A stretch of 64,000 nt of DNA from assembly GCF_011045215.1 (NCBI RefSeq), contig NZ_CP049201.1; one strand, written 5' to 3'. Below, one piece after another: positions 956 through 53,915 of the stretch (position 1 is its first letter; every line of letters begins with the position of its first letter). The translations under genes and the position numbers were made by a program. A model generated the notes under the pieces. The model saw only the letters and a program-made list of their open reading frames with translations, ran no database searches and was not told the DNA's origin. The stretch comes from Escherichia coli. Lineage in GTDB: Bacteria; Pseudomonadota; Gammaproteobacteria; Enterobacterales; Enterobacteriaceae.

Positions 956-959
956 GCGT

Positions 960-13389: not shown

Positions 13390-13415
13390 GGGGGAAAACC
13401 GCTTCCCCCTTTAAT
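13390..13415 (+). terminator. hairpin gggggaa-aaccgc-ttccccc followed by a short T-run, downstream of the small ORF
   Basis: Seen in sequence; T-tract is short (ttt) so strength is uncertain. Confidence 0.35.
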
Positions 13416-13475
13416 AAAGCTATACTCGTCATACTTCAAGTTGCATGTGCTGCGACTTGAATTATCTAGAGTATA

Positions 13476-13793: not shown

Positions 13794-13853
13794 CGCTTTC
13801 CCCGCTGGTAAGTCGTGTTGATAACGGGCAGTTGCATCACTGCCCGCTGTGTT

Positions 13854-16800: not shown

Positions 16801-17486
16801 TCCTTAGAATGAAAATGAGTTCGCGGGCATTCAAGGCCTACCAACTCATTGGCTATTTCTGGTTTTTCCGGGAGGATCAGCGCAATAAAAGGGCGGCGAA
16901 CTTTGGTTATTCCTGGTAGTGCGGCAATGAGTTTGTCGGCGCAACGCTGCCAGCAGCTTTCCTCTGCCAGAGAGAGGTGTTTACGCAGTCGGAGATCGAA
17001 TTCGTTATAGGTTTCTGAGCGATAACCATAGCCATAGTCCTCGTTCTGATACTGCAATGTGACTACCAGAGGATCACTCTCATAACACCGTGCAATAAAC
17101 TGGCGTGCAATCACCACCTCAGTCGCATATTCCAGCCCCTCTTGTTGGACGATTTCGTCGAGCAACTGTTGGCTGTCATTTTGCGCGATACAGGCTAGCG
17201 CCGCCATTGTCCGGGCCGGGATTGAGGGTTTGTGTTCGCCGATCAAGTTGATGGCCTGCGTGATGGCGGACTGCCACTCCAGTGAAAAATTTTCATAACG
17301 CCAGACAATGTTTTTTTTCTTCTCAGCTTTTTGTAGCAATTCATCACCCAGTGTCTGAATGATGCTTTCAGTGATAACAGGCACTGGTTCGCCCGGCCAA
17401 TTGCGATGGCTGAGTGGTGTTTTACCCTTTTTATATTTCAGTTCCAGTTGGGCGTTATCAGCCAGCCACGGTAATTCCTTGTCCAT
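13854..17486 (-). CDS. yehI: giant DUF4132-type protein, paralog of the two upstream genes but lacking the N-terminal WGR-like domain
   Basis: 1210 aa; begins at the PWLAD motif that follows the WGR domain in the paralogs; C-terminal region aligns with both upstream paralogs. Confidence 0.85.
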   Translation of the reverse strand: MDKELPWLADNAQLELKYKKGKTPLSHRNWPGEPVPVITESIIQTLGDELLQKAEKKKNIVWRYENFSLEWQSAITQAINLIGEHKPSIPARTMAALACIAQNDSQQLLDEIVQQEGLEYATEVVIARQFIARCYESDPLVVTLQYQNEDYGYGYRSETYNEFDLRLRKHLSLAEESCWQRCADKLIAALPGITKVRRPFIALILPEKPEIANELVGLECPRTHFHSKEWLKVVANDPTAVRKLEHYWSQDIFSDREASYMSHENHFGYAACAALLREQGLAAIPRLAMYAYKEDCGSLLVQINHPQVIRTLLLVADKNKPSLQRVAKYHKNFPHATLAALAELLALTEPPARPGYPIIEDKKLPAQQKARDEYWRTLLQTLMASQPQLAAEVMPWLSTQARAVLKSYLSALPKPVIDGTDNSNLPEILVSPPWRSKKKMTAPRLDLARLELTPQVYWQPGERERLAATEPARYFSTESLAERMEQKSGRVVLQELGFGDDVWLFLNYILPGKLDAARNSLIVEWHYYQGRVEEILNGWNSPEAPLAEQALRSGHVEALINIWENDNYSRYRPEKSVWNLYLLAQLPREIALTFWLRINEKKHLFAGEDYFLSILGLDALPGLLLAFSHRPKETFPLILNFGATELALPIARVWHRFAGQRNLARQWILHWPEHTATALIPLVFTKSSDKSEAALLALRLLYEHGHGELLQTLANRWQRTDLWPALEQLLKQSPIEIYPARIPKAPDFWHPQMWSRPRLITNNQTVTDDALEIFGEMLRFTQGGRFYSGLEQLKTFCQPQTLAAFAWDLFTAWQQAGAPAKDNWAFLALSLFGDESTARDLTTQILAWPQEGKSARAVSGLNILTLMNNDMALIQLHHISQRAKSRPLRDNAAEFLQVVAENRGLSQEELADRLVPTLGLDDPQALIFDFGPRQFTVRFDENLNPIIFDQQNVRQKSVPRLRADDDQLKAPEALAQLKGLKKDATQVSKNLLPRLETALRTTRRWSLADFHSLFVNHPFTRLVTQRLIWGVYPANEPRCLLNAFRVAAEGEFCNAQDEPIDLPADALIGIAHPLEMTVEMRSEFAQLFADYEIMPPFRQLSRRTVLLTPDESTSNSLTRWEGKSATVGQLMGMRYKGWESGYEDAFVYDLGEYRLVLKFSPGFNHYSADSKALMSFHSLRVYRNNKSVTFAELDVFDLSEALSAADVIFH

Positions 17487-17495
17487 GCTCTTTCC

Positions 17496-20400: not shown

Positions 20401-20528
20401 GCAAAGCTTTTTACCTGACTTTGCCCGTTGGTACCGACTTTACCCCAGTTAATATGCAGCTCGTTTCCCTGCTGCTCCACCGCCCAGAATTTATGTGATT
20501 TTTCGTCCTGATAAATATAGGTTTTCAT
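17496..20528 (-). CDS. giant WGR-domain/DUF4132-type protein, middle paralog of the tandem array
   Basis: 1010 aa; N-terminal about 65 aa near-identical to the 1269 aa paralog (MKTYIYQDEKSHKFWAVEQQGNELHINWGKVG...); conserved C-terminus ...ITASELINDIEALFE; 9 bp from the yehI start. Confidence 0.8.
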   Translation of the reverse strand: MKTYIYQDEKSHKFWAVEQQGNELHINWGKVGTNGQSQVKSFADTAAAEKAALKLIAEKVKKGYVEQVDANAHSHDASAKKVLVTEEKASINRQAATNGLPWLADNDPIILPPNIARHALSHRLWPGEPVKKPTKPEKQNLISRLANRTYHYYKNLTFDYSSCSDEWADAISQAISLIKAQKTKIPARTMAVLTFLEICFCQGWNDETSSELLDEIVSTFGIEYATETVIFWWQIDFDFDYKDEHLTFFINYADSSKDSYRRNNDKFSLRLRKHLSLAEEEVWQNCIAKLLVALPDISLYRQPLIAILMPEIPEVAHEIVHRLHQVADVPQLEMLKLVATDPFTLEILENYQYIDVFNTYGASWSATVLREQGIAALARLAPYAEEDNCGDVLKCINHPLAITALIEAADTNKRCYERLIKSAENFPSATIAALAEALVKKDDKRKHTLLVSLLNANPLLVEKLVIGLSSQAVNLLQQCQQLLNSRNEDFANSEILPMVLVSPPWETQNKNNDNSPVGKYPAKIPPLPLFYQPPLWTRPKLKNSSKVLPDSALQHLGEMLRFPQEEALYPGLLQVKDACTADSLAEFAWDLFTAWLTAGAPSKESWAFTALGVLGNDDTARKLTPLIRAWPGESQHKRATVGLDILAAIGSDIALMQLNGIAQKLKFKALQERAKEKIADIAESRELTVAELEDRLAPDLGLDDNGSLLLDFGSRQFTVSFDETLKPFVRDVSGSRLKDLPKPNKSDDESQANDAVNRYKLLKKDARTVAAQQVARLESAMCLRRRWSPENFQLFLVEHPLVRHLTRRLIWGVYSAENQLQACFRVAEDNSYSTADDDLFTLPEGDISIGIPHVLEISPTDAAAFGQLFADYELLPPFRQLDRNSYALTEAERNASELTRWAGRKCPSGRVMGLANKGWIKGEPQDGGWIGWMIKPLGRWSLIMEIDEGFAVGMSPAELSAEQLLSKLWLWEGKAESYGWGSNSTQEALFSVLDAITASELINDIEALFE

Positions 20529-20540
20529 TGTTAAATCCTT

Positions 20541-23500
20541 TTAATCAAACAGTGATTCAATGTCGTTAATCAGCTCGCTGGCGGTGATGTCGTCGAGCAT
20601 GGAGAAAGTGGGTGAGGATTGTTTACCATAGCGATCATAAGGGGCGGTGATTTTTACGCTTTCGACAGGCAGCAGGTCGCTATACCCCGTTTCGCCATAA
20701 ATTAATGAAAAAGGTTCCGTTTCAAGTTCGAGAGCACCATAAGGGGTAGATTTGCGCATCGCATAGACGCTGCCGCTTTCTTCCAGACGTTGCCAGCCTC
20801 GGCGTTCCAGCCCGACAATGCGTCCGGCCTGGCAGAGACGTCCGTTCCAGCGTGACAATTCATGGACATTACGTTCGTTATCAGCAAGGTGGTAACTACC
20901 ACGTTCGAACTGTTGGAAAGGGGGAAGCAGTTCGTAATCAACGTAAATTTGCCTGAATGCAGCGGCGGATTCAGGGGGGATTTCCAGCACATGCGGTATA
21001 CCGATGTTTCCTGCTGGCAGCGTGAATAACTCATCCTGCGCATCGCTGTAAGTGCTGTCTTCTGCCACGCGAAAACAGGTGATAAGAGCGTTTTCATCGT
21101 TATAACCCCCCCATAACAGCCGTCGGGTTAAGTGACGTACCAGCGGATGCTCCACCAGAAACAGGCGGAACTGCTCTGCCGTCCAGCGTCTGCGCTGGCA
21201 CATAGCCTGTTCCAGACGGGTAATTTGCTGGCTGGCGATAGCACGAACATCTTTTTTCAACTGTTTGAAGAGATTAACTGCGTCAGTTGCCAGTGTTTTA
21301 TCATCGCTCTGGTTTGGCTTAGGTAAATCTTTCAGGACTTTGCCGTTTGCATCGCACACTACAGGTTTTAAGGTTTCGTCAAAACCAACGGTGAATTTGC
21401 GGGGGCCGAAATCCAGTGTCAGCGAGCCACTGCTATCAAGCCCTAAATCTGGAGCCAGGCGGTCTTCCAGTTCAGCCATAGTCAGCCCACGGTTTTCAGC
21501 AACTATGTTGATTTTCTCGCGGGCATGTTCCTGTAATGCTTTGAATTTAATTTTTCGCGCGATGCCATTAAGCAGCATTAGCGCAACATCGCTGCCAATA
21601 TCAGCTAATACATCCAGCCCGGACACCGCCCGTTTATGCTGGGATTCCCCAGGCCAGGCGCGGATAAGCGGGGTTAATTTACGCGCGGTGTCGTCATTGC
21701 CTAAAATCCCAAGCGAAGTAAATGCCCAGTTTTCTTTTGCGGGTGCGCCAGCTTCTGTCCAGGCGGTATACAGATCCCAGCCAAATTCAGCCAGTGATTC
21801 GCGGGTGAAGATTTCTCTAATGATATCCAGCCCAGCGTAGGCGGTAATGTCGCGAGGAAAGCTCAGCATAGTGCCGAGGTGGCGCATAGCGTCATCTGAC
21901 AGAGGCAGGTTGTTACTTTTAAGCCGTGGTCTGCGCCACAAGGTGAACTGATAAAAGCCGGACAGTGGGGCGATTTTAGCGGGATATTCTTCCAGTGGGT
22001 CGCTATCGAACAATGTTGCCAGCGCAGCTAAAACATCAGGTTGGTTGTATCCCTGGGCGATTTCCTCAATCGTTTCTCGCTGGTTTAAATTCACCAGCAG
22101 ACGAAGCGCCTGGCGGGCACAATCACGATCTTTTCCCTGTTTGCCCAGGGCCACAGGAAGTAGCCCGGCGGCGGCATGGCGTGGGTAGTCAGTTAGCCAG
22201 TTTCGCGCATCTTCATAAGACATTTTTTTCTGTAGCTGTTGCGCCATCGGTAAGGCCAGTTCACTGACACCGAGGAAGAAGGTGAAGAAGCACAGGCGTC
22301 GTGGATTACGTTGCAGACAGGTCATAAATGCAGGTATGGCGGCGCTACCAAAAATTGCCAGAATATTTTCCTCACCAGAGTAGTTATCTTCTTTGACTAT
22401 CTGGTTAAGAAAAGAAATGGCCTGTTGACCAGGCAGGTAACAGAGGGCCATGAGATCCCAGCTTTTGTATGCATTGTTATGGTATTGCGCAAATTCAGCA
22501 TTGAGTGCTGGAAAATCGAAGCGTAGCAGGGCATCAACGGCGCTTTGTGGGGCCGGAATTTTTTCGTATATTTTCTCTCCGCTTTCCCGCCATTTTTCAA
22601 AACCAAGATGCCACAGTATTTGTTGCTCCGGTGTAAGCGGTATTAATTGTTTCTCCCAGCTTGCTTTTTTCATCGGCGGCAGGTCGGTAAACAATGTTTG
22701 TTTTGTCGCCTGCTGTTGGGCTATTTGCTGGAAGCGGGTGACAAGGTAAGTACGGGTTAGTCTTTTGGCAATCTCGGGAGTGACATCAGAAACAGAAGGA
22801 ACTGGAAGCACAGGAAGATCAAACACAGGCGTATTTTTCTTTTTCTCTTTGGTCATCCAGGGCGGCGAAACAAGCAGTTGTGGCAACATATCCGCAGTGG
22901 CGTATTCACACACTTCAGTCACAGGTTGCAGGCGACATTCAGATAAGATGCCAGCGGCTTTGGCATTCACCCAGGGAATGACGTCGCATACTAACTCTGG
23001 CGTGGCGGTAATCAGTTTGACAAGCGCTTTACGCCACTCTTTATCTTCATGTATTGCCAGCAAAGTAGCATAAGCCGCAATAGCCGCAGCGGGATGCTTT
23101 TGACTGGCCTTGCTTAAGTATTCCAGGTGCTTTTTCTTACCAATTACACCGAGGATCAGAATTTGAATCGCATCCGGGTGATTAGTTTTCCATAGCCATT
23201 TGACAAGATTTTCAGTCTCGCTGATGCGTTCGAAGAGATAAGTGGGATTGTCAGAATGGTCTTCCGTAAACTCAAGAAGTATCCGGCTTACACCGCGCAC
23301 CCCATTATTTGCCAACAACATTGCCAGATAAGCGCGAAAATTACGAAAATCACGATACAACGGTGGGAAGTCGTATTTTTCCACTGTACTCAGAGCAGTA
23401 TCATCGGTTATCACCAGTCTTAACCAGGCCATCGCCGGGACGTTTTGGTCTGCATAGCGTAGAGCTATAGCATGGGCGATATCCGGGCGTTCAGGGAGCA

Positions 23501-24350
23501 GTAACGCCGCAAAAGGTTGCCGTGCGGGGGATAGCGTCGGAATGGCGGTGAGTACTTTATCTACACAGCGTTGCCACTCATCTTCTGAAGCGAGTGAAAG
23601 ATGATGACATAGACGTTGATGCCAACTAGGTAGCGATTCTGCTTCGTGATTAGGTGGAATGATGGTGGTTACTGCGCCTTTTACTGGTTTATATTTGAGT
23701 TGAAGGGCAAAAAGGGCGATTTCAACGGCGCTTTCCAGACCACAGCGAATGACTAAGTCATCGACCAGTTCATCTGCAGAGTAAGAGTTCCAAAAACTCC
23801 AGAGCAATGCTGCATCAGATTGCGCACTCCCTGTCTGTTGATTATCCAGAATTCGCCTTTGTAACTCAGCAAAAGCCTGCTGCCAGTTTTCAGGATAAGA
23901 GCGGTAATTGTTGTCGGGATCATATGCCCTGGTGTTATCTGCAATACGCTTCCATATCTCACCGTCTTTGCGCAGATAATTGATCTCTCTGGGGCGAGAG
24001 CGATGAGGAAAAGCAAATCGGTTAATATCGTCAGTTACCGGAATAACTGCATCATCAGCCAGCCACGGGCGTTGGTTTTTACTCTCAGGGGAAGATTCAA
24101 CTTCAGGAGTGGCTTTGGTGATGGGGGAGATATGCACGTTTGCTGAAGCATTTTCCACATAGCCTTTTTTCGTTTTCTCTGCGATCAGCTTAAGCTCCGC
24201 TTTTGCCGCTGCCGCAGCATCTGCAAAACTTTTTATCTGGCTTTGCCCTTTGGTGCCAACTTTTCCCCAACTGATATGCAACTCGTTTCCCTGTTGCTCC
24301 ACCGCCCAGAATTTATGTGATTTTTCGTCCTGATAGATAAAGTGTCTCAT
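20541..24350 (-). CDS. molR: giant WGR-domain/DUF4132-type protein, intact here; K-12 counterpart is the molR pseudogene
   Basis: 1269 aa uninterrupted ORF adjacent to metG; N-terminal WGR-like domain (MRHFIYQDEKSHKFWAVEQQGNELHISWGKVG...); symbol assigned from position next to metG as I recall the K-12 map. Confidence 0.7.
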   Translation of the reverse strand: MRHFIYQDEKSHKFWAVEQQGNELHISWGKVGTKGQSQIKSFADAAAAAKAELKLIAEKTKKGYVENASANVHISPITKATPEVESSPESKNQRPWLADDAVIPVTDDINRFAFPHRSRPREINYLRKDGEIWKRIADNTRAYDPDNNYRSYPENWQQAFAELQRRILDNQQTGSAQSDAALLWSFWNSYSADELVDDLVIRCGLESAVEIALFALQLKYKPVKGAVTTIIPPNHEAESLPSWHQRLCHHLSLASEDEWQRCVDKVLTAIPTLSPARQPFAALLLPERPDIAHAIALRYADQNVPAMAWLRLVITDDTALSTVEKYDFPPLYRDFRNFRAYLAMLLANNGVRGVSRILLEFTEDHSDNPTYLFERISETENLVKWLWKTNHPDAIQILILGVIGKKKHLEYLSKASQKHPAAAIAAYATLLAIHEDKEWRKALVKLITATPELVCDVIPWVNAKAAGILSECRLQPVTEVCEYATADMLPQLLVSPPWMTKEKKKNTPVFDLPVLPVPSVSDVTPEIAKRLTRTYLVTRFQQIAQQQATKQTLFTDLPPMKKASWEKQLIPLTPEQQILWHLGFEKWRESGEKIYEKIPAPQSAVDALLRFDFPALNAEFAQYHNNAYKSWDLMALCYLPGQQAISFLNQIVKEDNYSGEENILAIFGSAAIPAFMTCLQRNPRRLCFFTFFLGVSELALPMAQQLQKKMSYEDARNWLTDYPRHAAAGLLPVALGKQGKDRDCARQALRLLVNLNQRETIEEIAQGYNQPDVLAALATLFDSDPLEEYPAKIAPLSGFYQFTLWRRPRLKSNNLPLSDDAMRHLGTMLSFPRDITAYAGLDIIREIFTRESLAEFGWDLYTAWTEAGAPAKENWAFTSLGILGNDDTARKLTPLIRAWPGESQHKRAVSGLDVLADIGSDVALMLLNGIARKIKFKALQEHAREKINIVAENRGLTMAELEDRLAPDLGLDSSGSLTLDFGPRKFTVGFDETLKPVVCDANGKVLKDLPKPNQSDDKTLATDAVNLFKQLKKDVRAIASQQITRLEQAMCQRRRWTAEQFRLFLVEHPLVRHLTRRLLWGGYNDENALITCFRVAEDSTYSDAQDELFTLPAGNIGIPHVLEIPPESAAAFRQIYVDYELLPPFQQFERGSYHLADNERNVHELSRWNGRLCQAGRIVGLERRGWQRLEESGSVYAMRKSTPYGALELETEPFSLIYGETGYSDLLPVESVKITAPYDRYGKQSSPTFSMLDDITASELINDIESLFD

Positions 24351-38043: not shown

Positions 38044-38790
38044 ATGGAACAAGCGCATACCCAGCTGATTGCCCAACTGAACGAGCGTATTTTAGCGGCG
38101 GATAACACGCCGCTTTATATTAAGTTTGCCGAAACGGTAAAAAATGCCGTGCGCAGCGGGGTGCTGGAGCATGGCAATATTTTGCCCGGTGAGCGTGATT
38201 TAAGTCAGTTAACCGGCGTTTCACGCATTACGGTGCGCAAGGCGATGCAGGCGCTGGAAGAAGAGGGGGTGGTGACGCGTTCGCGTGGTTACGGCACGCA
38301 GATCAACAACATCTTCGAATACTCGTTGAAAGAAGCGCGAGGTTTTTCTCAGCAGGTGGTATTGCGCGGGAAAAAGCCCGATACGCTATGGGTTAACAAG
38401 CGTGTCGTGAAATGTCCCGAAGAAGTCGCGCAGCAGCTGGCGGTCGAAGCGGGAAGTGATGTCTTTTTGCTTAAGCGTATTCGCTATGTCGATGAAGAAG
38501 CGGTATCGATTGAGGAATCGTGGGTTCCGGCGCATTTAATTCATGATGTTGATGCCATCGGAATTTCTCTTTATGACTATTTCCGCAGCCAGCACATTTA
38601 CCCACAACGTACACGTTCCCGCGTTAGCGCCCGGATGCCAGATGCCGAGTTTCAGTCACATATTCAGTTAGATAGCAAAATACCGGTGCTGGTGATCAAG
38701 CAAGTGGCGCTTGACCAACAGCAACGGCCTATTGAATACAGCATTAGCCACTGTCGCAGCGATCTATACGTTTTTGTGTGCGAGGAGTAG
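38044..38790 (+). CDS. yegW: GntR-family transcriptional regulator
   Basis: 248 aa; GntR HTH (LPGERDLSQLTGVSRITVRKAMQALEEEGVV) plus UTRA-like C-domain. Confidence 0.85.
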   Translation: MEQAHTQLIAQLNERILAADNTPLYIKFAETVKNAVRSGVLEHGNILPGERDLSQLTGVSRITVRKAMQALEEEGVVTRSRGYGTQINNIFEYSLKEARGFSQQVVLRGKKPDTLWVNKRVVKCPEEVAQQLAVEAGSDVFLLKRIRYVDEEAVSIEESWVPAHLIHDVDAIGISLYDYFRSQHIYPQRTRSRVSARMPDAEFQSHIQLDSKIPVLVIKQVALDQQQRPIEYSISHCRSDLYVFVCEE

Positions 38791-39729
38791 TTCCTCGCGC
38801 GTTGGCGCACAATCACCGCCCCGATGCCCGACAACCCACGACGCCACTGCATTGCCCAGTAATACGGCATCCGCCAGTGGCAGACCAGAGGCCAGCCCGG
38901 CAAGTACGCCACCGGCATGACTGTCGCCCGCCCCAATGGTGTCGACAACTTGCGTTGGAAATGCCGGAATGCAGGCAGAAGCGTCGTTGCTGAAATACCA
39001 TGCGCCTTCTTTATCGAGACGAACGATCAACGGCGCGGCAAATTTCTCCTGCCATTGTTTGCCAAGTGTTGTTATCTCTGCGGATAAAGCAAAACGTTCG
39101 GCGGCAATCTCAGCCTCTTGACGATTGAGCGACACTAAAGGGCGACAGGCCATGATCCGCGCCAGTAATGCGTCCGGGATATCGCCAATACGTGGGCCAA
39201 AATCGATAAACGGCGTCACGTCTTGCAGCTCTTCCAGCCATTCCACTAACAATTCGCCGCAGGGCGAGGCCAGTTGATAACCGGAAAAATAGAGCAGGCT
39301 GCCAGGCGCAACGGTTAATCGCGCCAGCCACTGGCGATTCCACTGATTTTCCACACCGCTGAATGACATAAAAGTGCGTTCGCCATCCGGCTCAACCAGC
39401 GCCAGGCACCAGCCGTTATCACCTTTGGCGTTATCGATCAGGCTGATTAACCCCTCTTTTGCCATCCGGTTGCGAATAATCTCCGCCCATACCCCCTGAC
39501 CGAGCGGCAAGGCATTACCCGCTTCGATGCCGAGGCGCTTTAACGCCACGGCAATATTCAGTGCGCAGCCGCCAACGTTAACGCTCTGCTGTTTCAGTTC
39601 GATATCGCACCCACGCCAGGGGAGGGCATAAGCGTCGGCGATCACGTCAATGACCGCCGCGCCGACGACCATCACCGGCTGACGCGTGGTTAATTCAGGC
39701 AGCAGCGTGTGTAATCGAGCGCCGCTCAT
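38764..39729 (-). CDS. yegV: PfkB-family sugar/nucleoside kinase
   Basis: 321 aa; ribokinase-like GG and DTIGAGD motifs; convergent with yegW, 3' ends overlapping 27 bp. Confidence 0.85.
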   Translation of the reverse strand: MSGARLHTLLPELTTRQPVMVVGAAVIDVIADAYALPWRGCDIELKQQSVNVGGCALNIAVALKRLGIEAGNALPLGQGVWAEIIRNRMAKEGLISLIDNAKGDNGWCLALVEPDGERTFMSFSGVENQWNRQWLARLTVAPGSLLYFSGYQLASPCGELLVEWLEELQDVTPFIDFGPRIGDIPDALLARIMACRPLVSLNRQEAEIAAERFALSAEITTLGKQWQEKFAAPLIVRLDKEGAWYFSNDASACIPAFPTQVVDTIGAGDSHAGGVLAGLASGLPLADAVLLGNAVASWVVGHRGGDCAPTREELLLAHKNV

Positions 39730-40730
39730 ACCGCCTCCCGTTGTTGACGATATTTCGCCAGCGCTGTGGCATAGCGGTTGAAATCAAGCTGATTTACCGC
39801 ATCCAGCTCCGCCTTTAACGCAGGATCGATAGCGTTAATGCCATGCAACGCGCCGCAGATTGCCGTCGCCATAGCACCGATGGTGTCTGTATCGCCGCCA
39901 AGGTTAGCGCACAGGACGGCGCAGCGATTCGGGTCGGTTTGTGCCAGTTCAACCAGCGCAATGGCGCACGGAACGGACTCAATAGTGCTGGTACCTGCGC
40001 CAACGACCTGGTAAAGCTGTTCGCTGGCGGATTCGGTGCCGTCGGCATTGCGCACAATTTTCAGCGCAATCTCCAGACGTGCTGCCAGTGAGGCGCTGAA
40101 GGTAGTGATGCGTTTTTGCTGTGCATGTCGCGCAATTGAAGGCAGTGAATCAACAATCGCTGACCAGCTTTCTCCGTCAATGGCACGGGAAATCGCCCAT
40201 GCGATGACTACCGCACCTGCAACCGCCAGATCGGATTTATGGGTCGGGCTGGACGCCAGCGCCACATCATCAATAAAGGAATCAACATCACGCGCCGGAA
40301 GCAAACAACCTAATGGCGAGACGCGCATCGCTGCGCCGTTGGTCACGCCGTTGTTTTCCAGTTCAGCAACGGGTTTACCGTCGCGAATGGCGTTGAGAGC
40401 AATCTTCGAGGTCGGACCTAGTACGTTTTTGTTAAAGGCGTCGAAACGCAGCGCCCAGTCGAGAATATTACGCCCAATCAGATCCGGATCGATCTTGCCT
40501 TCACGTTCCAGTAACGCATCCGCCAGACACAGCGCCATCGAGGTATCGTCGGTGAATTCGGCGCGGTTAAAATAACAGGCCGCGTTATTCTCCTTTGGTC
40601 CAGGCAGAAAACGGTCAATCCAGCCAAAGTGTGCTTTAACGCGGCTGCGTGGCCAAAGCTCGGAGGGCATCCCCATCGCATCCCCTAACGCCTGCCCATA
40701 AAGAGCACCGAGAATACGTTCTGTTTTCAT
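39726..40730 (-). CDS. yegU: ADP-ribosylglycohydrolase-family protein
   Basis: 334 aa; family fold recognised; 4-nt overlap with yegV. Confidence 0.85.
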   Translation of the reverse strand: MKTERILGALYGQALGDAMGMPSELWPRSRVKAHFGWIDRFLPGPKENNAACYFNRAEFTDDTSMALCLADALLEREGKIDPDLIGRNILDWALRFDAFNKNVLGPTSKIALNAIRDGKPVAELENNGVTNGAAMRVSPLGCLLPARDVDSFIDDVALASSPTHKSDLAVAGAVVIAWAISRAIDGESWSAIVDSLPSIARHAQQKRITTFSASLAARLEIALKIVRNADGTESASEQLYQVVGAGTSTIESVPCAIALVELAQTDPNRCAVLCANLGGDTDTIGAMATAICGALHGINAIDPALKAELDAVNQLDFNRYATALAKYRQQREAV

Positions 40731-42004
40731 TTAACTTCCCCTTGTGTCAACGCAATATCGCGATCATCGACCTTGATAGCCGTAATTTCGTTGTCGGATT
40801 CGCGGAAAAAAATCATGAACAGCACGGCGATAATGGCAATCATCACCGCGCCAAAAGTCCACATCCCGGACCAGTTGAAAGTCAGTCCGTTTACCGGTTC
40901 CTGATAAGCGAACATCTTTTCCATCATCACACCGCCAAGACGATAGCCGAGCAAACTGCCGAAGCCCTGGCAGCAGAGCGTGATCAGCCCCTGCGCGGCG
41001 GTACGCATATGCACGGGGGCTTTTTTATCGACATAGATGTAAGCGGTAACGTAGTAAAAATCGTAACTTACGCCGTGAAGCAAAATACCGAGGAACAGTA
41101 ACGCGTAGGTGAAATATTCATCCGCACTACCGTAAATAAAGAAGCCATAGCGGATCGCAGCGGTGATCAGACCAAGCAATAATACCTTTTTGATACCAAA
41201 GCGTTTAGTGAAAAACGGCAATGCCAGCATAAAGAAGATTTCAGAGAACTGGCCGAGCGTCATCCAGCCGGTGGCGTTTTTCATGCCAACTTCGGTCAGA
41301 TAACCGTTGGCAAAGATGTAATAGAACGCCAGTGGCATCGCAAACAGGAATGAACAGAAGAAAAAGACGAGGAAGTTTTTATCGCGCAGCAGGATCAGCG
41401 CATCCAGGCCGAGCATGACTTTAATGTCCATTTTGCCGGTGCTTTTTGGTGGCGTGTCGGGCAGGAAAAACGCAAACACACCGAGCAGAGCAGAACTTCC
41501 GGCGGTAATCAGCAGCGGGATGTTAGTCGGTGAGATATCGGCATACCCCAGCATTTGCGGCAAGAAACCACATGCCAGACCGGAGGCAATCCAGCCGATA
41601 GTGCCCATCACACGAATGCGCGGGAAATCACGCTCAACATCCGGCACGTTGGCAAAAGCGATGCTGTTAGTCAGCGCAATGGTCGGCATATAGGTTAGCG
41701 AGTAGGCCAGCAGTAACGGGAAGAACCCGGCAAAAGTGGTCTGTTGCGCAGCGAAATACATCAGCGCCGCACCAGTGAACATCAATACCGCCAGCACTTT
41801 CTGCGCCGAGAAAAAGCGGTCAGTGATGGAGCCAACCAGAATTGGCGACAGGATCGCCGCAATGGCTGTGCAGGCATACGACCAGCCAATTTCTCCGGCA
41901 CTAAAACCGCTTTTACTTAACCACAACCACAATGGCACAAACCACGCGCCCCAGATAAACCATTCAACAAACATCATGAACGACAGCTTTGCTGTTGTTT
42001 TCAT
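40727..42004 (-). CDS. yegT: MFS nucleoside transporter (NupG/XapB-like)
   Basis: 425 aa 12-TM protein; heads the yegTUV operon. Confidence 0.85.
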   Translation of the reverse strand: MKTTAKLSFMMFVEWFIWGAWFVPLWLWLSKSGFSAGEIGWSYACTAIAAILSPILVGSITDRFFSAQKVLAVLMFTGAALMYFAAQQTTFAGFFPLLLAYSLTYMPTIALTNSIAFANVPDVERDFPRIRVMGTIGWIASGLACGFLPQMLGYADISPTNIPLLITAGSSALLGVFAFFLPDTPPKSTGKMDIKVMLGLDALILLRDKNFLVFFFCSFLFAMPLAFYYIFANGYLTEVGMKNATGWMTLGQFSEIFFMLALPFFTKRFGIKKVLLLGLITAAIRYGFFIYGSADEYFTYALLFLGILLHGVSYDFYYVTAYIYVDKKAPVHMRTAAQGLITLCCQGFGSLLGYRLGGVMMEKMFAYQEPVNGLTFNWSGMWTFGAVMIAIIAVLFMIFFRESDNEITAIKVDDRDIALTQGEVK

Positions 42005-42260
42005 CTTTTAATTCCTTCATGACAGGTAATGTAAGGTACGCGATGACAATACCACTTAATAATACCTTTTAAATACCTTTGCGGTGAAAACTTGACCGCG
42101 CTAACATTTTTTCTGATGAATCGAGCCAACAGAAAACGCTGAAAAAACATCCAAAAGATGGAAAAACTCGCCCGTAACGACCAGGATTATGATTGCCCGC
42201 AAAAGGCGGGCCAGGACAATCCATAGCCGATATCCAATCGGAATTTACGGGAGCATAGTA

Positions 42261-43313
42261 ATGACAGATATTGCGCAGTTGCTTGGCAAAGACGCCGACA
42301 ACCTTTTACAGCACCGTTGTATGACTATTCCTTCTGACCAGCTTTATCTTCCCGGACATGACTACGTAGACCGCGTGATGATTGACAATAATCGCCCGCC
42401 AGCGGTGTTACGTAATATGCAGACGTTGTACAACACCGGGCGTCTGGCTGGCACAGGATATCTTTCTATTCTGCCCGTTGACCAGGGCGTTGAGCACTCT
42501 GCCGGAGCTTCATTTGCTGCTAACCCGCTCTACTTTGACCCGAAAAACATTGTTGAACTGGCGATCGAAGCGGGCTGTAACTGTGTGGCATCAACTTACG
42601 GCGTGCTGGCGTCGGTATCGCGGCGTTATGCGCATCGCATTCCATTCCTCGTCAAACTTAATCACAACGAGACGCTAAGTTACCCGAACACCTACGATCA
42701 AACGCTGTATGCCAGCGTGGAGCAGGCGTTCAACATGGGTGCGGTGGCGGTTGGTGCGACTATCTATTTTGGCTCGGAAGAGTCACGTCGCCAGATTGAA
42801 GAAATTTCTGCGGCTTTTGAACGTGCGCACAAGCTGGGCATGGTGACAGTGCTGTGGGCCTATTTGCGTAACTCCGCCTTTAAGAAAGATGGCGTTGATT
42901 ACCATGTCTCCGCCGACCTGACTGGTCAGGCGAACCATCTGGCGGCAACCATAGGTGCAGATATCGTCAAACAAAAAATGGCGGAAAATAACGGCGGCTA
43001 TAAAGCAATTAATTACGGTTATACCGACGATCGCGTGTACAGCAAGTTAACCAGCGAAAACCCGATTGATCTGGTGCGTTATCAGTTAGCTAACTGCTAT
43101 ATGGGCCGGGCCGGGTTGATAAACTCCGGTGGTGCTGCAGGCGGTGAAACTGACCTCAGTGATGCAGTGCGTACTGCGGTTATCAACAAACGCGCTGGCG
43201 GAATGGGGCTGATTCTTGGACGTAAGGCGTTCAAGAAATCGATGGCTGACGGCGTGAAACTGATTAACGCCGTGCAGGACGTTTATCTCGATAGCAAAAT
43301 TACTATCGCCTGA
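42261..43313 (+). CDS. fbaB: class I fructose-bisphosphate aldolase
   Basis: 350 aa from [27 protein letters not shown]; ORF track starts 24 codons upstream. Confidence 0.9.
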
Positions 43314-43337
43314 TACGCCTCATACTAACAGCACTAC

Positions 43338-43460
43338 CCCGTAGGACGGATAAGCCGTTTACGTCGCATCCGGCAACCTATGCCTGATGCGACGCTGACG
43401 CGTCTTATCATGCCTACACAGCGCTGCCACGTATGTTTACGCCGCATCCTGCATAAAACC
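43338..43460. repeat. BIME: cluster of REP palindromic units between fbaB and gatY
   Basis: Recognisable REP units gtaggacggataagccgtttacgtcgcatccggcaa and gcctgatgcgacgctgacgcgtcttatcatgcctaca plus a partial third. Confidence 0.7.
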
Positions 43461-43475
43461 ACGCGCACTTTGTTG

Positions 43476-43504
43476 CGGCTTCCCTCCGGGAGGCCGTTTT
43501 TTTT
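43476..43504 (+). terminator. rho-independent terminator of fbaB
   Basis: Stem cggcttccc / gggaggccg followed by tttttttt. Confidence 0.6.
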
Positions 43505-43566
43505 GCCTTTCACTCCTCGAACAATTTTCACATTGTCGTTTTTGTGATCGTTATCTCGACATTTAA

Positions 43567-44502
<936 letters not shown>

Positions 44503-44503
44503 T

Positions 44504-45766
<1,263 letters not shown>

Positions 45767-45775
45767 GGACGGTAT

Positions 45776-46228
45776 ATGACTAACCTGTTTGTTCGTAGCG
45801 GAATTTCTTTTGTCGATCGTAGCGAAGTTTTAACCCATATCGGTAATGAGATGCTCGCGAAAGGTGTGGTTCATGATACCTGGCCACAGGCATTAATTGC
45901 CAGAGAAGCAGAATTCCCTACCGGGATAATGCTTGAGCAGCACGCCATTGCAATACCGCATTGTGAGGCGATTCATGCTAAGTCGTCAGCCATTTATCTG
46001 TTAAGGCCAACAAATAAAGTTCATTTTCAGCAAGCGGATGATGATAACGACGTGGCGGTATCGTTGGTTATTGCGTTGATTGTGGAAAATCCGCAGCAGC
46101 AATTGAAACTTTTACGCTGTTTATTTGGCAAGTTACAACAGCCCGATATCGTTGAGACACTAATCACTCTTCCTGAAACTCAGTTAAAGGAATACTTCAC
46201 AAAGTATGTTTTAGATTCAGACGAATAA
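45776..46228 (+). CDS. gatA: galactitol PTS enzyme IIA
   Basis: 150 aa. Confidence 0.9.
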   Translation: MTNLFVRSGISFVDRSEVLTHIGNEMLAKGVVHDTWPQALIAREAEFPTGIMLEQHAIAIPHCEAIHAKSSAIYLLRPTNKVHFQQADDDNDVAVSLVIALIVENPQQQLKLLRCLFGKLQQPDIVETLITLPETQLKEYFTKYVLDSDE

Positions 46229-46258
46229 ATCCCTCTGTAACAATAAAAAGGACTATTT

Positions 46259-46543
46259 ATGAAACGCAAGATTATTGTCGCTTGCGGAGGCGCGGTTGCG
46301 ACCTCTACGATGGCGGCGGAAGAAATTAAAGAGTTGTGTCAGAGTCATAATATTCCTGTTGAATTAATCCAGTGTCGGGTTAATGAAATAGAAACCTATA
46401 TGGATGGCGTGCATTTGATATGCACCACTGCCAAAGTGGATCGTAGTTTTGGCGATATTCCATTAGTTCACGGCATGCCTTTTGTTTCTGGTGTCGGTAT
46501 CGAAGCATTACAAAATAAAATTCTGACTATCTTACAGGGGTGA
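46259..46543 (+). CDS. gatB: galactitol PTS enzyme IIB
   Basis: 94 aa; active-site Cys in [11 protein letters not shown]. Confidence 0.9.
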
Positions 46544-46546
46544 CCT

Positions 46547-47902
46547 ATGTTTTCAGAAGTCATGCGTTATATTCTCGATCTCGGCCCTACGGTGATGTTG
46601 CCGATTGTCATCATTATTTTTTCTAAAATATTAGGCATGAAGGCAGGCGATTGCTTTAAAGCGGGTCTGCATATCGGGATTGGCTTTGTTGGCATTGGCC
46701 TTGTGATTGGCTTAATGCTGGATTCCATTGGCCCGGCGGCGAAAGCGATGGCGGAAAATTTCGACCTGAATCTGCATGTGGTCGATGTCGGCTGGCCGGG
46801 CTCTTCACCAATGACCTGGGCGTCGCAAATTGCGCTGGTGGCGATTCCGATTGCGATTCTGGTTAACGTGGCGATGTTACTGACCCGTATGACGCGGGTG
46901 GTAAATGTTGATATCTGGAATATCTGGCATATGACCTTCACCGGCGCGTTGCTGCATCTGGCAACCGGTTCATGGATGATAGGGATGGCGGGTGTGGTAA
47001 TTCACGCGGCGTTTGTTTATAAGCTCGGCGACTGGTTTGCCCGCGATACCCGAAATTTCTTTGAGCTGGAAGGCATGGCAATCCCGCACGGTACGTCGGC
47101 GTATATGGGGCCAATTGCGGTGCTGGTCGATGCTATCATCGAGAAAATCCCAGGCGTTAACCGAATTAAATTTAGCGCCGACGATATTCAGCGCAAATTT
47201 GGTCCGTTTGGCGAGCCTGTCACCGTGGGTTTTGTGATGGGGCTGATTATCGGCATCCTCGCGGGTTACGATGTCAAAGGTGTATTGCAGCTGGCGGTAA
47301 AAACAGCGGCGGTGATGCTGCTGATGCCACGGGTGATTAAACCCATCATGGATGGTTTAACGCCCATCGCTAAGCAGGCCCGTAGTCGTTTACAGGCGAA
47401 GTTCGGCGGTCAGGAGTTCCTGATTGGCCTGGATCCCGCATTACTGCTGGGGCATACGGCGGTGGTATCGGCAAGCCTGATTTTTATTCCACTCACCATT
47501 TTAATTGCTGTTTGTGTGCCGGGTAATCAGGTGCTGCCGTTTGGCGATCTTGCCACTATCGGCTTCTTTGTGGCGATGGCGGTCGCGGTGCATCGTGGAA
47601 ATCTGTTCCGCACCTTAATCTCGGGTGTCATCATTATGAGCATCACCCTGTGGATCGCGACGCAAACTATTGGTTTGCACACCCAACTGGCGGCTAATGC
47701 TGGGGCGTTAAAAGCCGGAGGTATGGTGGCTTCAATGGATCAGGGCGGTTCTCCCATTACCTGGTTACTGATTCAGGTTTTCTCCCCGCAAAATATTCCC
47801 GGTTTCATTATTATCGGCGCAATTTATCTTACCGGTATTTTCATGACTTGGCGTAGAGCGCGTGGTTTTATTAAACAAGAGAAAGCCGTTCTCGCAGAAT
47901 AA
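46547..47902 (+). CDS. gatC: galactitol PTS enzyme IIC permease
   Basis: 451 aa polytopic membrane protein. Confidence 0.9.
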   Translation: MFSEVMRYILDLGPTVMLPIVIIIFSKILGMKAGDCFKAGLHIGIGFVGIGLVIGLMLDSIGPAAKAMAENFDLNLHVVDVGWPGSSPMTWASQIALVAIPIAILVNVAMLLTRMTRVVNVDIWNIWHMTFTGALLHLATGSWMIGMAGVVIHAAFVYKLGDWFARDTRNFFELEGMAIPHGTSAYMGPIAVLVDAIIEKIPGVNRIKFSADDIQRKFGPFGEPVTVGFVMGLIIGILAGYDVKGVLQLAVKTAAVMLLMPRVIKPIMDGLTPIAKQARSRLQAKFGGQEFLIGLDPALLLGHTAVVSASLIFIPLTILIAVCVPGNQVLPFGDLATIGFFVAMAVAVHRGNLFRTLISGVIIMSITLWIATQTIGLHTQLAANAGALKAGGMVASMDQGGSPITWLLIQVFSPQNIPGFIIIGAIYLTGIFMTWRRARGFIKQEKAVLAE

Positions 47903-47949
47903 TTTTTACCTGAGGGGGAGGTTATCCCCCTTAACAATCAGGAGTTTTT

Positions 47950-48990
47950 ATGAAATCAGTGGTGAATGATACTGATGGTATCGTGCGCGTTGCAGAAAGC
48001 GTCATTCCTGAAATTAAACATCAGGATGAGGTGCGGGTAAAAATTGCCAGCTCGGGCTTATGTGGTTCCGATTTACCCAGGATATTTAAAAATGGTGCAC
48101 ATTATTATCCAATAACGTTAGGCCATGAATTTAGCGGCTATATTGATGCGGTAGGATCCGGTGTTGATGATTTACACCCTGGCGATGCGGTTGCCTGTGT
48201 GCCGTTATTACCCTGTTTTACTTGTCCAGAGTGTCTGAAAGGGTTTTATTCCCAGTGCGCAAAATATGATTTTATTGGCTCACGGCGTGATGGTGGATTT
48301 GCCGAATATATTGTCGTTAAGCGGAAAAATGTCTTTGCTCTACCCACGGATATGCCTATTGAGGATGGGGCTTTTATTGAACCGATTACCGTTGGCCTGC
48401 ATGCTTTTCATTTAGCGCAAGGTTGTGAGAATAAAAACGTTATTATTATTGGTGCCGGAACCATTGGCCTGCTGGCTATTCAGTGCGCTGTCGCGCTGGG
48501 AGCAAAGAGTGTGACGGCGATCGACATTAGCTCAGAAAAACTGGCACTGGCAAAATCTTTCGGTGCGATGCAAACATTTAACAGTAGCGAAATGAGCGCG
48601 CCGCAAATGCAGAGCGTTTTACGCGAACTGCGCTTTAATCAGCTTATCCTCGAGACGGCTGGCGTACCGCAAACTGTCGAACTGGCGGTAGAGATTGCCG
48701 GTCCTCATGCCCAACTGGCGCTGGTGGGGACGTTGCATCAGGATCTGCATTTAACATCGGCAACGTTTGGCAAAATATTGCGTAAAGAGCTGACGGTTAT
48801 CGGCAGTTGGATGAACTACTCCAGCCCTTGGCCGGGGCAGGAGTGGGAAACGGCGAGCCGGTTGCTGACAGAACGTAAGTTAAGCCTGGAGCCATTAATC
48901 GCTCACCGTGGAAGCTTTGAATGCTTCGCCCAGGCGGTGCGTGACATCGCTCGTAATGCTATGCCGGGCAAAGTGTTGCTCATTCCCTGA
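47950..48990 (+). CDS. gatD: galactitol-1-phosphate 5-dehydrogenase (Zn-dependent MDR family)
   Basis: 346 aa; catalytic Zn ligands and structural Cys cluster (CFTCPECLKGFYSQC); Rossmann GAGTIG. Confidence 0.9.
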   Translation: MKSVVNDTDGIVRVAESVIPEIKHQDEVRVKIASSGLCGSDLPRIFKNGAHYYPITLGHEFSGYIDAVGSGVDDLHPGDAVACVPLLPCFTCPECLKGFYSQCAKYDFIGSRRDGGFAEYIVVKRKNVFALPTDMPIEDGAFIEPITVGLHAFHLAQGCENKNVIIIGAGTIGLLAIQCAVALGAKSVTAIDISSEKLALAKSFGAMQTFNSSEMSAPQMQSVLRELRFNQLILETAGVPQTVELAVEIAGPHAQLALVGTLHQDLHLTSATFGKILRKELTVIGSWMNYSSPWPGQEWETASRLLTERKLSLEPLIAHRGSFECFAQAVRDIARNAMPGKVLLIP

Positions 48991-48995
48991 AACCG

Positions 48996-49018
48996 CGGGC
49001 CAGCGTGATGCTGGCCCG
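48996..49018 (+). terminator. hairpin after gatD (cgggccagc gtgat gctggcccg); weak T-tract
   Basis: 9-bp perfect stem seen in sequence; no strong U-run. Confidence 0.3.
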
Positions 49019-49095
49019 GTATTGTGCAAAACAGATCATTCACCAATGGTCCCCCTTCGTTTACACTAGCCACAATTGAATATGGGTAAATGACG

Positions 49096-49869
49096 ATGAA
49101 TTCATTCGAGCGAAGGAATAAGATCATCCAATTAGTGAATGAACAGGGAACCGTGCTTGTTCAGGATCTGGCGGGAGTATTTGCTGCCTCGGAAGCGACA
49201 ATCCGTGCCGATTTGCGCTTTCTCGAACAAAAAGGCGTGGTTACGCGCTTTCATGGCGGTGCGGCGAAAATAATGTCCGGTAATAGTGAAACCGAGACCC
49301 AGGAAGTCGGGTTTAAAGAGCGATTTCAGCTCGCCAGCGCGCCAAAAAACAGAATAGCGCAGGCGGCAGTCAAAATGATCCACGAAGGGATGACCGTTAT
49401 TCTCGACAGCGGAAGTACGACAATGCTTATCGCCGAAGGATTAATGACCGCCAAAAATATCACGGTGATTACCAACAGTCTCCCGGCAGCGTTTGCCCTT
49501 TCCGAAAATAAAGACATTACTCTGGTCGTCTGCGGTGGCACGGTCCGCCATAAAACGCGCTCGATGCATGGTTCCATTGCCGAGCGTTCATTGCAGGATA
49601 TTAATGCCGATTTAATGTTTGTCGGTGCTGATGGTATTGATGCGGTTAATGGTATTACGACCTTTAATGAAGGTTATTCGATTAGCGGGGCGATGGTCAC
49701 CGCCGCAAATAAAGTGATTGCCGTTCTCGATTCATCGAAATTTAATCGTCGCGGTTTTAATCAGGTACTGCCAATCGAAAAAATTGACATTATTATTACC
49801 GATGATGCTGTGTCAGAGGTGGATAAACTGGCATTGCAGAAGACACGGGTAAAATTAATTACGGTGTAG
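49096..49869 (+). CDS. gatR: DeoR-family repressor of the gat operon, intact
   Basis: 257 aa from MNSFERRNKIIQLVNEQGTVLV (DeoR HTH) with sugar-binding C-domain; uninterrupted reading frame. Confidence 0.85.
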   Translation: MNSFERRNKIIQLVNEQGTVLVQDLAGVFAASEATIRADLRFLEQKGVVTRFHGGAAKIMSGNSETETQEVGFKERFQLASAPKNRIAQAAVKMIHEGMTVILDSGSTTMLIAEGLMTAKNITVITNSLPAAFALSENKDITLVVCGGTVRHKTRSMHGSIAERSLQDINADLMFVGADGIDAVNGITTFNEGYSISGAMVTAANKVIAVLDSSKFNRRGFNQVLPIEKIDIIITDDAVSEVDKLALQKTRVKLITV

Positions 49870-49880
49870 TATTGTTCTGT

Positions 49881-49914
49881 ATGCCGGATAAGGTGTTTAC
49901 ACCGCATCCGGCAT
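49881..49914. repeat. REP palindromic unit between gatR and yegS
   Basis: atgccggataaggtgtttacaccgcatccggcat. Confidence 0.6.
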
Positions 49915-49950
49915 TACGGATTCTCTCTGGTTCAAGAGAGAATAGTTTGA

Positions 49951-50850
49951 TTAACGCAATAATGGGCAATCTGGTGGTAATCGACAACGCAACGCCGCCG
50001 GAAGTATTTCAATATGAAAGTTTTGCCCACTCAACGGTTCGCCATCAAGATTAAAAGTGATTTCGTGTGGGGCTTGTATATCAAACCACGACGAAGCGCC
50101 TTCGATAATATTCGGGTTATCTTCGTCAGATTTTAAGGTTGATACGAGAGCTGGAAGAATTTCATCGCCGGTAAAAATGCGCAGTTGCAGCAAGCCATCG
50201 TTAATTAACGCGTTCGGACACAATTGCTGACCGCCACCGGCCTGACGCCCGTTACCAATACCAATGACCAGGGCGTCACCTTGCCAGTGAAAGTTTTCAC
50301 CGCGGATTTCACAACGGTCCGGTTGCAGAGTATCCATGCGCATTAAGCCATGAATGATGTAAGAGACGCCACCCAGCGCGGCTTTTAATTTTTCCGGCGT
50401 TTCTGTGGTAATACGCGTCCCAAACCCGCCTGTCGCCATATTAATAAAACAGGTTTGTTTGTTGACCTGCGCCATATCTATCGCAATGGCGTTACCGGCA
50501 ATTGCCAGTTTCAGCGCCTTATCCAGTGCCTCAGGAATCCCTACACTGGTGGCAAAATCATTGGCGGTTCCTAATGGCAAAATTCCCAGCGCGGGTATGT
50601 TATCCCCCTCACACTGAATCAACGCCGTAGAAACTTCATTAATGGTGCCATCGCCACCACCGGCAATCACCGTTGCGACGCCCAACTTCCGAGCCTCCTC
50701 TACATATCGTGCGGCATCGCCTTTCTCCCAGGTGACCCGCACATGGATCGTCATTCCTTCCTCACGCAACAGCATAATTGCTTCGCGCAATGGTAAATTG
50801 TCAGTACTTTTGCCATTAAGAATCAGTAAGCTGGCGGGAAATTCTGCCAT
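49951..50850 (-). CDS. yegS: DAG-kinase-like lipid kinase
   Basis: 299 aa ([18 protein letters not shown]...GGGDGT). Confidence 0.9.
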
Positions 50851-51254
50851 GATCGTATGTGCCTTTATGATTGGTCTGTAGATAGTGTAGAGCAGAAAAG
50901 AAAAGGTGGAGTCAGAACAGGATGAAAGTCGGAGGATAAAAAGTCAGTTCAAGTATGGAGGATTCAGTGGTTACCACCAGGAGCTTGCAATTGGGACAGC
51001 GAATACTAACGGCAGCCACCGATAAATGTTAAAAAAGAGCATATACCTAATATTCAACTAAACAGTGGCATCTTCAATATAATATATTAAAGCCCCCATG
51101 GAGTTACCCGGAAGGGCCTCCATGTCCGTAATTCCTACTTATGTAGGAAATGTTGTACAGAACATTTATTATAATCCTATTCAATTATAATAATCAGCCA
51201 TTATTATATTTAAACACTAGAGAGTGTCGTTGGTATTTAATGGGGAAAGGTGAG

Positions 51255-51572
51255 ATGAAAAAGATAGCTGCTATATCATTAATTAGTATTTTTATTATGT
51301 CTGGTTGTGCTGTGCATAATGATGAGACAAGTATCGGTAAATTTGGTCTTGCATATAAAAGTAATATTCAGCGTAAACTCGATAACCAATACTACACCGA
51401 AGCCGAAGCTTCTTTAGCCAGGGGCAGAATATCTGGTGCAGAAAATATAGTAAAAAATGATGCAGCCCATTTCTGTGTTACTCAGGGCAAAAAAATGCAG
51501 ATAGTTGACCTGAAGACAGAAGGTGCAGGATTACATGGCGTCGCTCGTCTGACATTCAAATGTGGAGAGTGA
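51255..51572 (+). CDS. yegR: small lipoprotein of unknown function
   Basis: 105 aa from MKKIAAISLISIFIMSGC (lipobox); ORF track starts 35 codons upstream. Confidence 0.8.
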   Translation: MKKIAAISLISIFIMSGCAVHNDETSIGKFGLAYKSNIQRKLDNQYYTEAEASLARGRISGAENIVKNDAAHFCVTQGKKMQIVDLKTEGAGLHGVARLTFKCGE

Positions 51573-51730
51573 GAATATTTTTTGGTAAGCGTCAAACATG
51601 CGCGTTCTGGCTGTGCGTAGCCGGAACCTGTGGGAGCACGATGCCGATAAGTGTAAGGCATCGTGCTATGAAGGGAGATTCTATCGATGTGGTCAATGGA
51701 AGACGGTGACCAGGGATAGGGCTTATGCAT

Positions 51731-51817
51731 AAAAAATAAGCCCGTGTAAGGGAGATTACACAGGCTAAGGAGGTGGTTCCTGGTACAGCTAGCATTTTAT
51801 GGGTTATGTTTTTCAGC
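51731..51817 (-). ncRNA. cyaR: Hfq-dependent sRNA CyaR (RyeE)
   Basis: Minus-strand sequence gctgaaaaacataacccataaaatgctagctgtaccaggaaccacctccttagcctgtgtaatctcccttacacgggcttatttttt matches CyaR as I recall it, including the intrinsic terminator. Confidence 0.85.
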
Positions 51818-51851
51818 GAAACGGATGATAACCTTAATAAATGCAGCTGTA

Positions 51852-51867
51852 TGTGATCGGTTTCTAA
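51852..51867. promoter_or_regulatory. candidate CRP site (TGTGA-N6-TCTAA) about 41 bp upstream of the cyaR 5' end
   Basis: One perfect half-site and one degenerate half-site; position fits the class II CRP activation known for cyaR. Confidence 0.4.
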
Positions 51868-51901
51868 GAATTTTCCATCCGGGAAAAATAATCGAAATTA
51901 A

Positions 51902-53365: not shown

Positions 53366-53662
53366 TTAGCTCCAGTGTAAATGTCTGGTGGCGTCCTGGT
53401 TTTGGTTAAGGATACGAATGACGATAATTTCCCCTGGTGATTGCAGGAAATAAATTACGTGGCGTTCAAAAGGAAGAACAAAAATACCTTCGCCTAATTC
53501 AGGTCTGGGCGTACCTATATTATTGTTACTCAGAATCTGGAGAACGTCTGAAAGATGTTCCACATATCTGTCGGCTTGTGGTTCGCCGAAATGGTGATAA
53601 CTGTAATACCAGATGCCTTCTAAATCCTCATTGGCTTTTGGCATGAGTTTAATAATACGCAC
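53366..53662 (-). CDS. ParE/RelE-superfamily type II toxin
   Basis: 98 aa from GTG, or 92 aa from ATG at 53644; ParE-like pattern (EDLEGIWYYSYHHFGEPQADRYVEHL ... IYFLQSPGEIIVIRILNQNQD); starts 1 nt after the antitoxin stop. Confidence 0.7.
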   Translation of the reverse strand: MRIIKLMPKANEDLEGIWYYSYHHFGEPQADRYVEHLSDVLQILSNNNIGTPRPELGEGIFVLPFERHVIYFLQSPGEIIVIRILNQNQDATRHLHWS

Positions 53663-53663
53663 A

Positions 53664-53915
53664 TTATTTCCTTATCCCTGCTTTCACCTTCCGTAAAAAC
53701 GCGTCCTTTTCCCACGGCTGAGCTTCACCACTACTCAACCCTTCTGCAAGCATGTCACGTAACGCTTGCAGGCGAGACTCTGCTTGCTTTTCTCGAAGTA
53801 AGCGCAGTGACTCACGGATCACTTCGCTTTGGGTGCGATAGTCGCCGGATTCAATTAAGGACTCGATAAATTCACGCAACTCATCGCCGAGATCAACCGT
53901 CATCGTTCTGGCCAT
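53664..53915 (-). CDS. ParD-family (RHH/CopG-like) antitoxin
   Basis: 83 aa MARTMTVDLGDELREFIESLIESGDYRTQSEVIRESLRLLREKQ..., typical ParD (COG3609-like) N-terminus; immediately upstream of the toxin. Confidence 0.7.
   Translation of the reverse strand: MARTMTVDLGDELREFIESLIESGDYRTQSEVIRESLRLLREKQAESRLQALRDMLAEGLSSGEAQPWEKDAFLRKVKAGIRK

Follow-up and report, generated by a model that had tools for sequence, protein, structure and literature searches.

The galactitol (gat) systems closest to the locus considered here have been described in Salmonella Typhimurium and in several strains of E. coli. In PMC7972205, citing Nolle et al. 2017, the GatR protein of Salmonella Typhimurium is presented as a DeoR-type repressor of the gat promoters, with deletion of its helix-turn-helix (HTH) abolishing repression. 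For E. coli K-12, several papers (PMC5850726; PMC4072538, which names the element as IS3E; PMC10878103; PMC9189660; PMC3045373; PMC3446290) connect an insertion in gatR with constitutive expression of the gat genes. Our account of IS3E and of constitutivity in K-12 is drawn from the annotated MG1655 record together with these secondary citations; the original prediction had likewise held that an insertion sequence in gatR makes the MG1655 operon constitutive, and on this it agrees with several of these papers (PMC5850726, PMC4072538, PMC10878103, PMC3045373, PMC3446290). Expression of the gat genes is higher in MG1655 than in the K-12 strain NCM3722, whose gatR is undisrupted (PMC3045373), and than in REL606, for which an intact gatR is described (PMC3446290); without inducer, REL606 and NCM3722 express these genes far below the level of MG1655 (PMC3446290, PMC3045373). 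The most direct functional precedent is that of Sousa et al. 2017, in which the MG1655 pseudogene was swapped for a PCR fragment of strain HS reaching from yegS to gatD, resulting in a regulated operon (PMC5850726). When MG1655 with the HS gatR was followed in mice, gat-negative mutants ceased to arise, and constitutive mutants emerged via new IS insertions in gatR (PMC5850726). The gat locus is a recurrent target of IS-mediated inactivation during gut colonisation (PMC5850726); hence, an intact gatR marks a strain without that adaptation.

The window, i.e. the whole stretch of 64,000 nucleotides of E. coli DNA that was analysed, carries gatR at 49096..49869 (+). In the six-frame ORF list this is an unbroken frame of 257 codons followed by a TAG stop (774 nt), and the single uninterrupted ORF of 257 codons called by the original prediction is recovered at the same coordinates. 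The odds of as many random codons being free of stops are roughly 4e-6, i.e. about (61/64)^257, and this together with its domain matches in Pfam indicates that the ORF is not a product of chance. The encoded protein combines an N-terminal DNA-binding HTH_DeoR domain (PF08220; residues 6-58, 49111..49269 (+); E=1.3e-16, 60.5 bits vs a cut-off of 21) with a C-terminal effector-sensing/oligomerisation DeoRC domain (PF00455; residues 83-236, 49342..49803 (+); E=2.5e-51, 174.2 bits vs a cut-off of 31.8). Both scores lie far above the gathering thresholds, in keeping with the earlier assignment of the gene to the DeoR family; the order of the two domains and the length of 257 aa (about 250 expected) are those of a DeoR/GlpR family member. 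By sequence, the nearest entry in the PDB is the C-domain of E. coli DeoR (7l6l, E=1.9e-11), and no other relative was recovered from that database. The exact 257-aa protein is encoded on at least 1000 contigs, under source names including ‘DeoR family galactitol utilization operon repressor’, and the identical protein is annotated as WP_001295426.1 in the strains N3, HS, ETEC1721 and 05-3629. Antisense or overlapping ORFs within gatR do not exceed 83 aa, which is the chance level.

Two in-frame starts are available to the gene. The first ATG (ATG ACG at 49090..49095 (+)) gives an ORF at 49090..49869 of 259 aa, which is chosen by some gene callers and is represented both in the protein cluster and among the called genes; the second, at 49096, gives the protein of 257 aa. 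The RefSeq start of gatR in N3, HS and ETEC1721 is the ATG equivalent to 49096 (774-nt CDS).

The gene lies directly downstream of gatY, gatZ, gatA, gatB, gatC and gatD (43621..48990 (+)) and is convergent with yegS. All six structural genes are intact, being full-length ORFs of 284, 420, 150, 94, 451 and 346 aa, respectively, with no internal stops; gatY occupies 43621-44475 (+) and gatC, coding for the PTS IIC component, 46547-47902 (+). The order fbaB-gatYZABCD-gatR-yegS is the same in N3, HS and ETEC1721, and the placement of gatD-gatR-yegS is also that of MG1655. Folding points to a G+C-rich hairpin just past the gatD stop (48996..49018 (+); 9-bp stem, 5-nt loop, no T-run); MG1655, HS and N3 have the identical sequence (100%), and the hairpin is possibly a partial terminator or an RNA-stabilising element between gatYZABCD and gatR. 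A further hairpin (49920..49943) separates gatR from the convergent yegS; preceded by a REP-like palindrome at about 49880-49915, it is likely a transcription stop shared by the two genes. The fbaB-gatY spacer at the other end of the operon contains a REP/BIME cluster matching the Rfam family naRNA4 (43344-43414 (+), 62.7 bits); about 77 bp of the cluster are missing from N3, and the length of the spacer is therefore polymorphic.

In the MG1655 record gatR (b4498) is a two-piece pseudogene of 299 nt + 475 nt, split by an IS3E element of 1258 bp (insE5/insF5, record positions 2170171-2171428), which is the interruption that the original prediction had described for that strain. Joined, the two fragments make up 774 nt and are collinear with the single ORF of the window; a base-by-base comparison is gapless throughout, with no indel and 10 substitutions, all synonymous, and 0 amino-acid differences. 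The alignment against the MG1655 fragments that had been proposed as a check was hence run, and gives the same length with neither insertion nor frameshift in the gatR of the window. The first MG1655 fragment ends in GAC (...GATGAC) and a second GAC precedes the other fragment, forming a 3-bp duplication; the target duplications of IS3 are typically 3 bp long. In the window this triplet (49392..49394 (+)) is unoccupied. The MG1655 insertion point corresponds to window 49394/49395, inside the codon for Thr100, which places it within DeoRC and downstream of the HTH, and the empty site reads GGGATGAC/CGTTATT, with the slash at the point of insertion.

The original prediction had also counted the intact gatR as a sign that the window is not from MG1655. 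Its conclusion stands: the window has no IS3E at this site and differs from the joined MG1655 gene at 10 nucleotides, its gatC is intact (1356 nt, 451 codons) vs the frameshifted 1358-nt pseudogene with a 2-bp insertion of the MG1655 reference, and the genes neighbouring gatR are 97-99% identical to those of MG1655. The sign itself, however, is insufficient when taken alone, and an intact gatR does not by itself rule out K-12, because gatR is reported to be undisrupted in NCM3722. What excludes a K-12 origin is the divergence of gatR, 1.3% and entirely synonymous, along with flanking genes that are 97-99% identical.

The frequency of the uninterrupted gene was gauged in a set of 5426 complete E. 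coli genomes, using a query of 951 bp around gatR. Matches were obtained in 5109 of the 5426, with no more than 4756 genomes matching in one place with at least 80% of the query covered; this latter figure is an upper bound, since the search joins pieces across gaps of the size of IS1. Of the 5426 genomes, 344 have the IS3E::gatR junction of MG1655 (the laboratory strains ER1709 and HE_50 being those that span it among the matches listed), and these nearly cover the 353 genomes with a partial match only. The gatR of the BL21 family is interrupted by IS1A, flanked by a 9-bp duplication, CGATTTCAG, and 36 genomes have this junction; the same 9-bp target is unoccupied in the window (49321..49329 (+)). 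The IS1A::gatR of BL21 TaKaRa lies on its sequence L010 at 13006-14555, and the gatR of strain K207-3 also has an IS1A. The IS1A event of the BL21 family is independent of the IS3E event of K-12. Uninterrupted gatR is thus a feature of roughly 85-88% of the complete genomes and of more than 90% of those carrying the locus: the window shows the norm of the species, and it is the K-12 and BL21 lineages that are exceptional.

The protein of the window matches that of HS, WP_001295426.1, at 257 of 257 positions in a direct BLASTP comparison. The 105-bp spacer between gatD and gatR, together with the start region, is 100% identical across the window, MG1655, HS and N3. Relative to HS there are 0 amino-acid replacements in GatR, with the neighbouring gat proteins having between 0 and 10, and the 10 synonymous and 0 non-synonymous changes in gatR are consistent with purifying selection on the protein. 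We accordingly put at about nine in ten the probability that the gatR of the window is a wild-type, functional allele of the DeoR-family repressor of the galactitol operon gatYZABCD. As a gene it is an ordinary wild-type gatR, already well known. Retention of regulation by galactitol in this strain, which the original prediction had presumed, is a strong inference from the identity of the protein to the HS allele, the identical spacer and the intact structural genes, and the operon is expected to be inducible, unlike the constitutive one of K-12 MG1655.

The mechanism that would follow is a conventional one. The N-terminal HTH of GatR would bind one or more operators at the gatY promoter and thereby keep the operon off, galactitol would be imported and phosphorylated by the GatABC PTS, and an effector would then bind the C-terminal DeoRC domain with a consequent release of GatR from the operator. 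This effector would be either galactitol itself or a phosphorylated intermediate, the latter appearing more likely for the DeoR family. What we infer in this scheme is where the operator lies, what the effector is, and that repression and induction take place in this particular strain.

A candidate gatY control region can be proposed from the sequence at 43543..43595 (+), downstream of a proposed fbaB terminator (43475-43505). Its predicted elements are a CRP-like site, TGTGA-N6-TCTCG (43543-43558 (+)), the centre of which would be about 41.5 bp upstream of a putative start near 43592; a sigma-70-like promoter with TCGACA as its -35 and CATTAT as its -10 (43556-43585 (+)); and an inverted repeat, ATTTCA-N8-TGAAAT (43576-43595 (+)). 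By overlapping the -10, the last of these lies where a repressor would naturally bind, and it is plausible that it serves as the GatR operator. Pentamers of the type TTTCA/TGAAA are weakly enriched here (5 in 128 nt vs 2.1 expected, p about 0.03), and none is present upstream of gatR. A de novo search for the operator by repeat finding returned only an inverted pair of 8 nt, 61 nt apart, and promoter-like matches were at the chance level (10 vs 9.7 expected).

It is in this region that the foremost alternative to a regulated operon is to be sought, namely that gatR is an intact ORF but that substitutions in the gatY operator have lost or altered the regulation and left the operon partly or fully constitutive. 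The last ~110 bp before gatY do have four substitutions in the window vs HS, and likewise when HS and MG1655 are taken together, one of them being a T-to-C change directly 3' of the TTTCA pentamer at 43526-43530. However, every one of the four is a natural polymorphism in other strains with an intact gatR: two are common to N3, one is common to ETEC1721, 05-3629 and contig L008, and the fourth, a G-to-T at 43611, recurs in the B lineage. Moreover, the repeat overlapping the -10 is unchanged across the four strains aligned (the window, MG1655, HS and N3), and the 0 non-synonymous changes in gatR argue for continued selection on the repressor, which would be odd with a dead operator. None of the substitutions points to a loss of the operator, and we regard this alternative to the wild-type, regulated reading as improbable.

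The change at 43611 (+) converts AGGA to ATGA in the Shine-Dalgarno of gatY, 10 nt before its ATG. The position is a G in MG1655, HS, N3, ETEC1721 and the contigs L008 and L009, and the closest promoter haplotypes are without the T. We considered whether the T might be unique to this strain, or a defect, and rejected this, as 78 of the 5426 complete genomes, those of the BL21/E. coli B family among them, contain the exact 41-mer with the T. The change may lower the translation of GatY. One could go further: the window would then pair an intact repressor with a weaker ribosome-binding site of gatY, and the lowered translation of GatY would be a product of natural selection, although we hold this to be a speculative idea with the balance tilted well against it. 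Were it true, the stoichiometry of GatY:GatZ or the flux through the toxic galactitol/tagatose-phosphate branch would be shifted, and there would be a second route for tuning gat expression in the gut, besides IS insertions in gatR or the gat genes.

If its promoter or start were defective, the intact gatR could, in principle, be poorly expressed or silent, so that the strain would behave as a gatR null. Upstream of 49096 neither a strong sigma-70 consensus nor a Shine-Dalgarno is evident, and gene callers are divided between the starts for 257 and 259 aa; against this, the spacer and start region are 100% identical to those of HS, and it was an HS fragment including this native upstream region that restored regulation in MG1655 (PMC5850726). 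Such a failure of expression is thus very unlikely. That the ORF is a chance one or a mis-assigned DeoR paralogue such as AgaR or SrlR can be dismissed almost outright: the best NCBIfam models for GatR are indeed those of AgaR and SrlR, but the scores of 232.6 and 226.3 bits are below the respective curated cut-offs of 260 and 350, and gatR itself is indicated by the position, by the synteny and by a protein 100% identical to those of the K-12 and HS genes. The paralogue assignment is refuted outright by the comparisons with the joined MG1655 gene (0 amino-acid differences) and with HS (257/257 identical).

Over 39000-63900 (24.9 kb), identity to the complete E. coli genomes does not exceed 98.6%, and the positions that differ in the nearest one are evenly spread. 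Identity to the contigs that code for the exact GatZ is 98.4-99.2% across the 13 kb of 38504-51766, with abrupt changes along the way in the best of these draft contigs; one of them, L008, is near-identical to the window only at about 41.5-45.9 kb. From this, the window appears to be naturally recombinant, a mosaic whose lineage is absent among the complete genomes.

Several other loci of the window were noted alongside gatR. Between yegQ/trhP and yegP is a parDE-type type II toxin-antitoxin pair (53366-53915 (-)), comprising a ParD antitoxin of 83 aa (PF03693) and a ParE toxin of 98 aa (PF05016). The corresponding spacer is without parDE in MG1655 and HS, and in N3 it has a different insertion coding for a hypothetical protein and a HEAT-repeat protein. 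The interval from yegS to yegQ (50851-51901, about 1.05 kb) contains yegR and the RNA CyaR (51734-51819 (-)), and is without the ogrK/yegZ P2-remnant ‘cryptic prophage PR-X’ which adjoins cyaR in MG1655. Farther away, a match to the Rfam OrzO-P antitoxin RNA (12956-13031 (-), 99.9 bits) points to a type I toxin-antitoxin locus of the zor-orz kind; this locus is not known to be present in K-12. Three consecutive very large ORFs of 1210, 1010 and 1269 aa follow at 13854-24350 (-), of which the 1269-aa one, adjoining metG, corresponds by position to a DUF4132 protein of HS. The equivalent of these ORFs in MG1655 is presumably the molR region, which we take to be fragmented there.

The finding matters mainly for annotation, in that the window comes from a non-K-12 E. 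coli, whose galactitol operon would be of the ancestral, regulated form. Both of the main laboratory lineages have lost gatR, through different IS insertions, and both MG1655 (gatR::IS3E and, in the reference, the gatC frameshift) and the BL21 family (gatR::IS1A) are atypical at this locus; hence, results on gat expression or fitness obtained with them are not transferable to strains like that of the window.

Set against the known systems, the GatR of the window has the same two-domain architecture as the sugar-phosphate repressors AgaR, SrlR (GutR) and DeoR of E. coli, which act on other operons and respond to other effectors. The models of AgaR and SrlR align to it end to end. The equivalog cut-offs of 260 bits for AgaR (NCBIfam NF040755) and 350 bits for SrlR/GutR (NCBIfam NF007753) are nevertheless not reached by its scores of 232.6 and 226.3 bits, and GatR is therefore to be seen as a paralogue that is a member of neither group. 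The GatR of Salmonella Typhimurium is the same kind of regulator in the same pathway, with the species and the organisation of the gat cluster being different. The BL21-family gatR::IS1A is the same gene at the same locus, with the 9-bp site at 49321-49329 being empty in the window. In MG1655 the joined fragments encode the same 257-aa protein as the window, and the difference is the IS3E after ORF nt 299, which splits the DeoRC domain and from which the gatR of the window is free. The HS system is the nearest: it shares with the window the protein, the synteny (gatD-gatR, convergent with yegS) and the upstream spacer, and differs by 10 synonymous nucleotides in the ORF and at a few positions ahead of gatY, in the promoter region.
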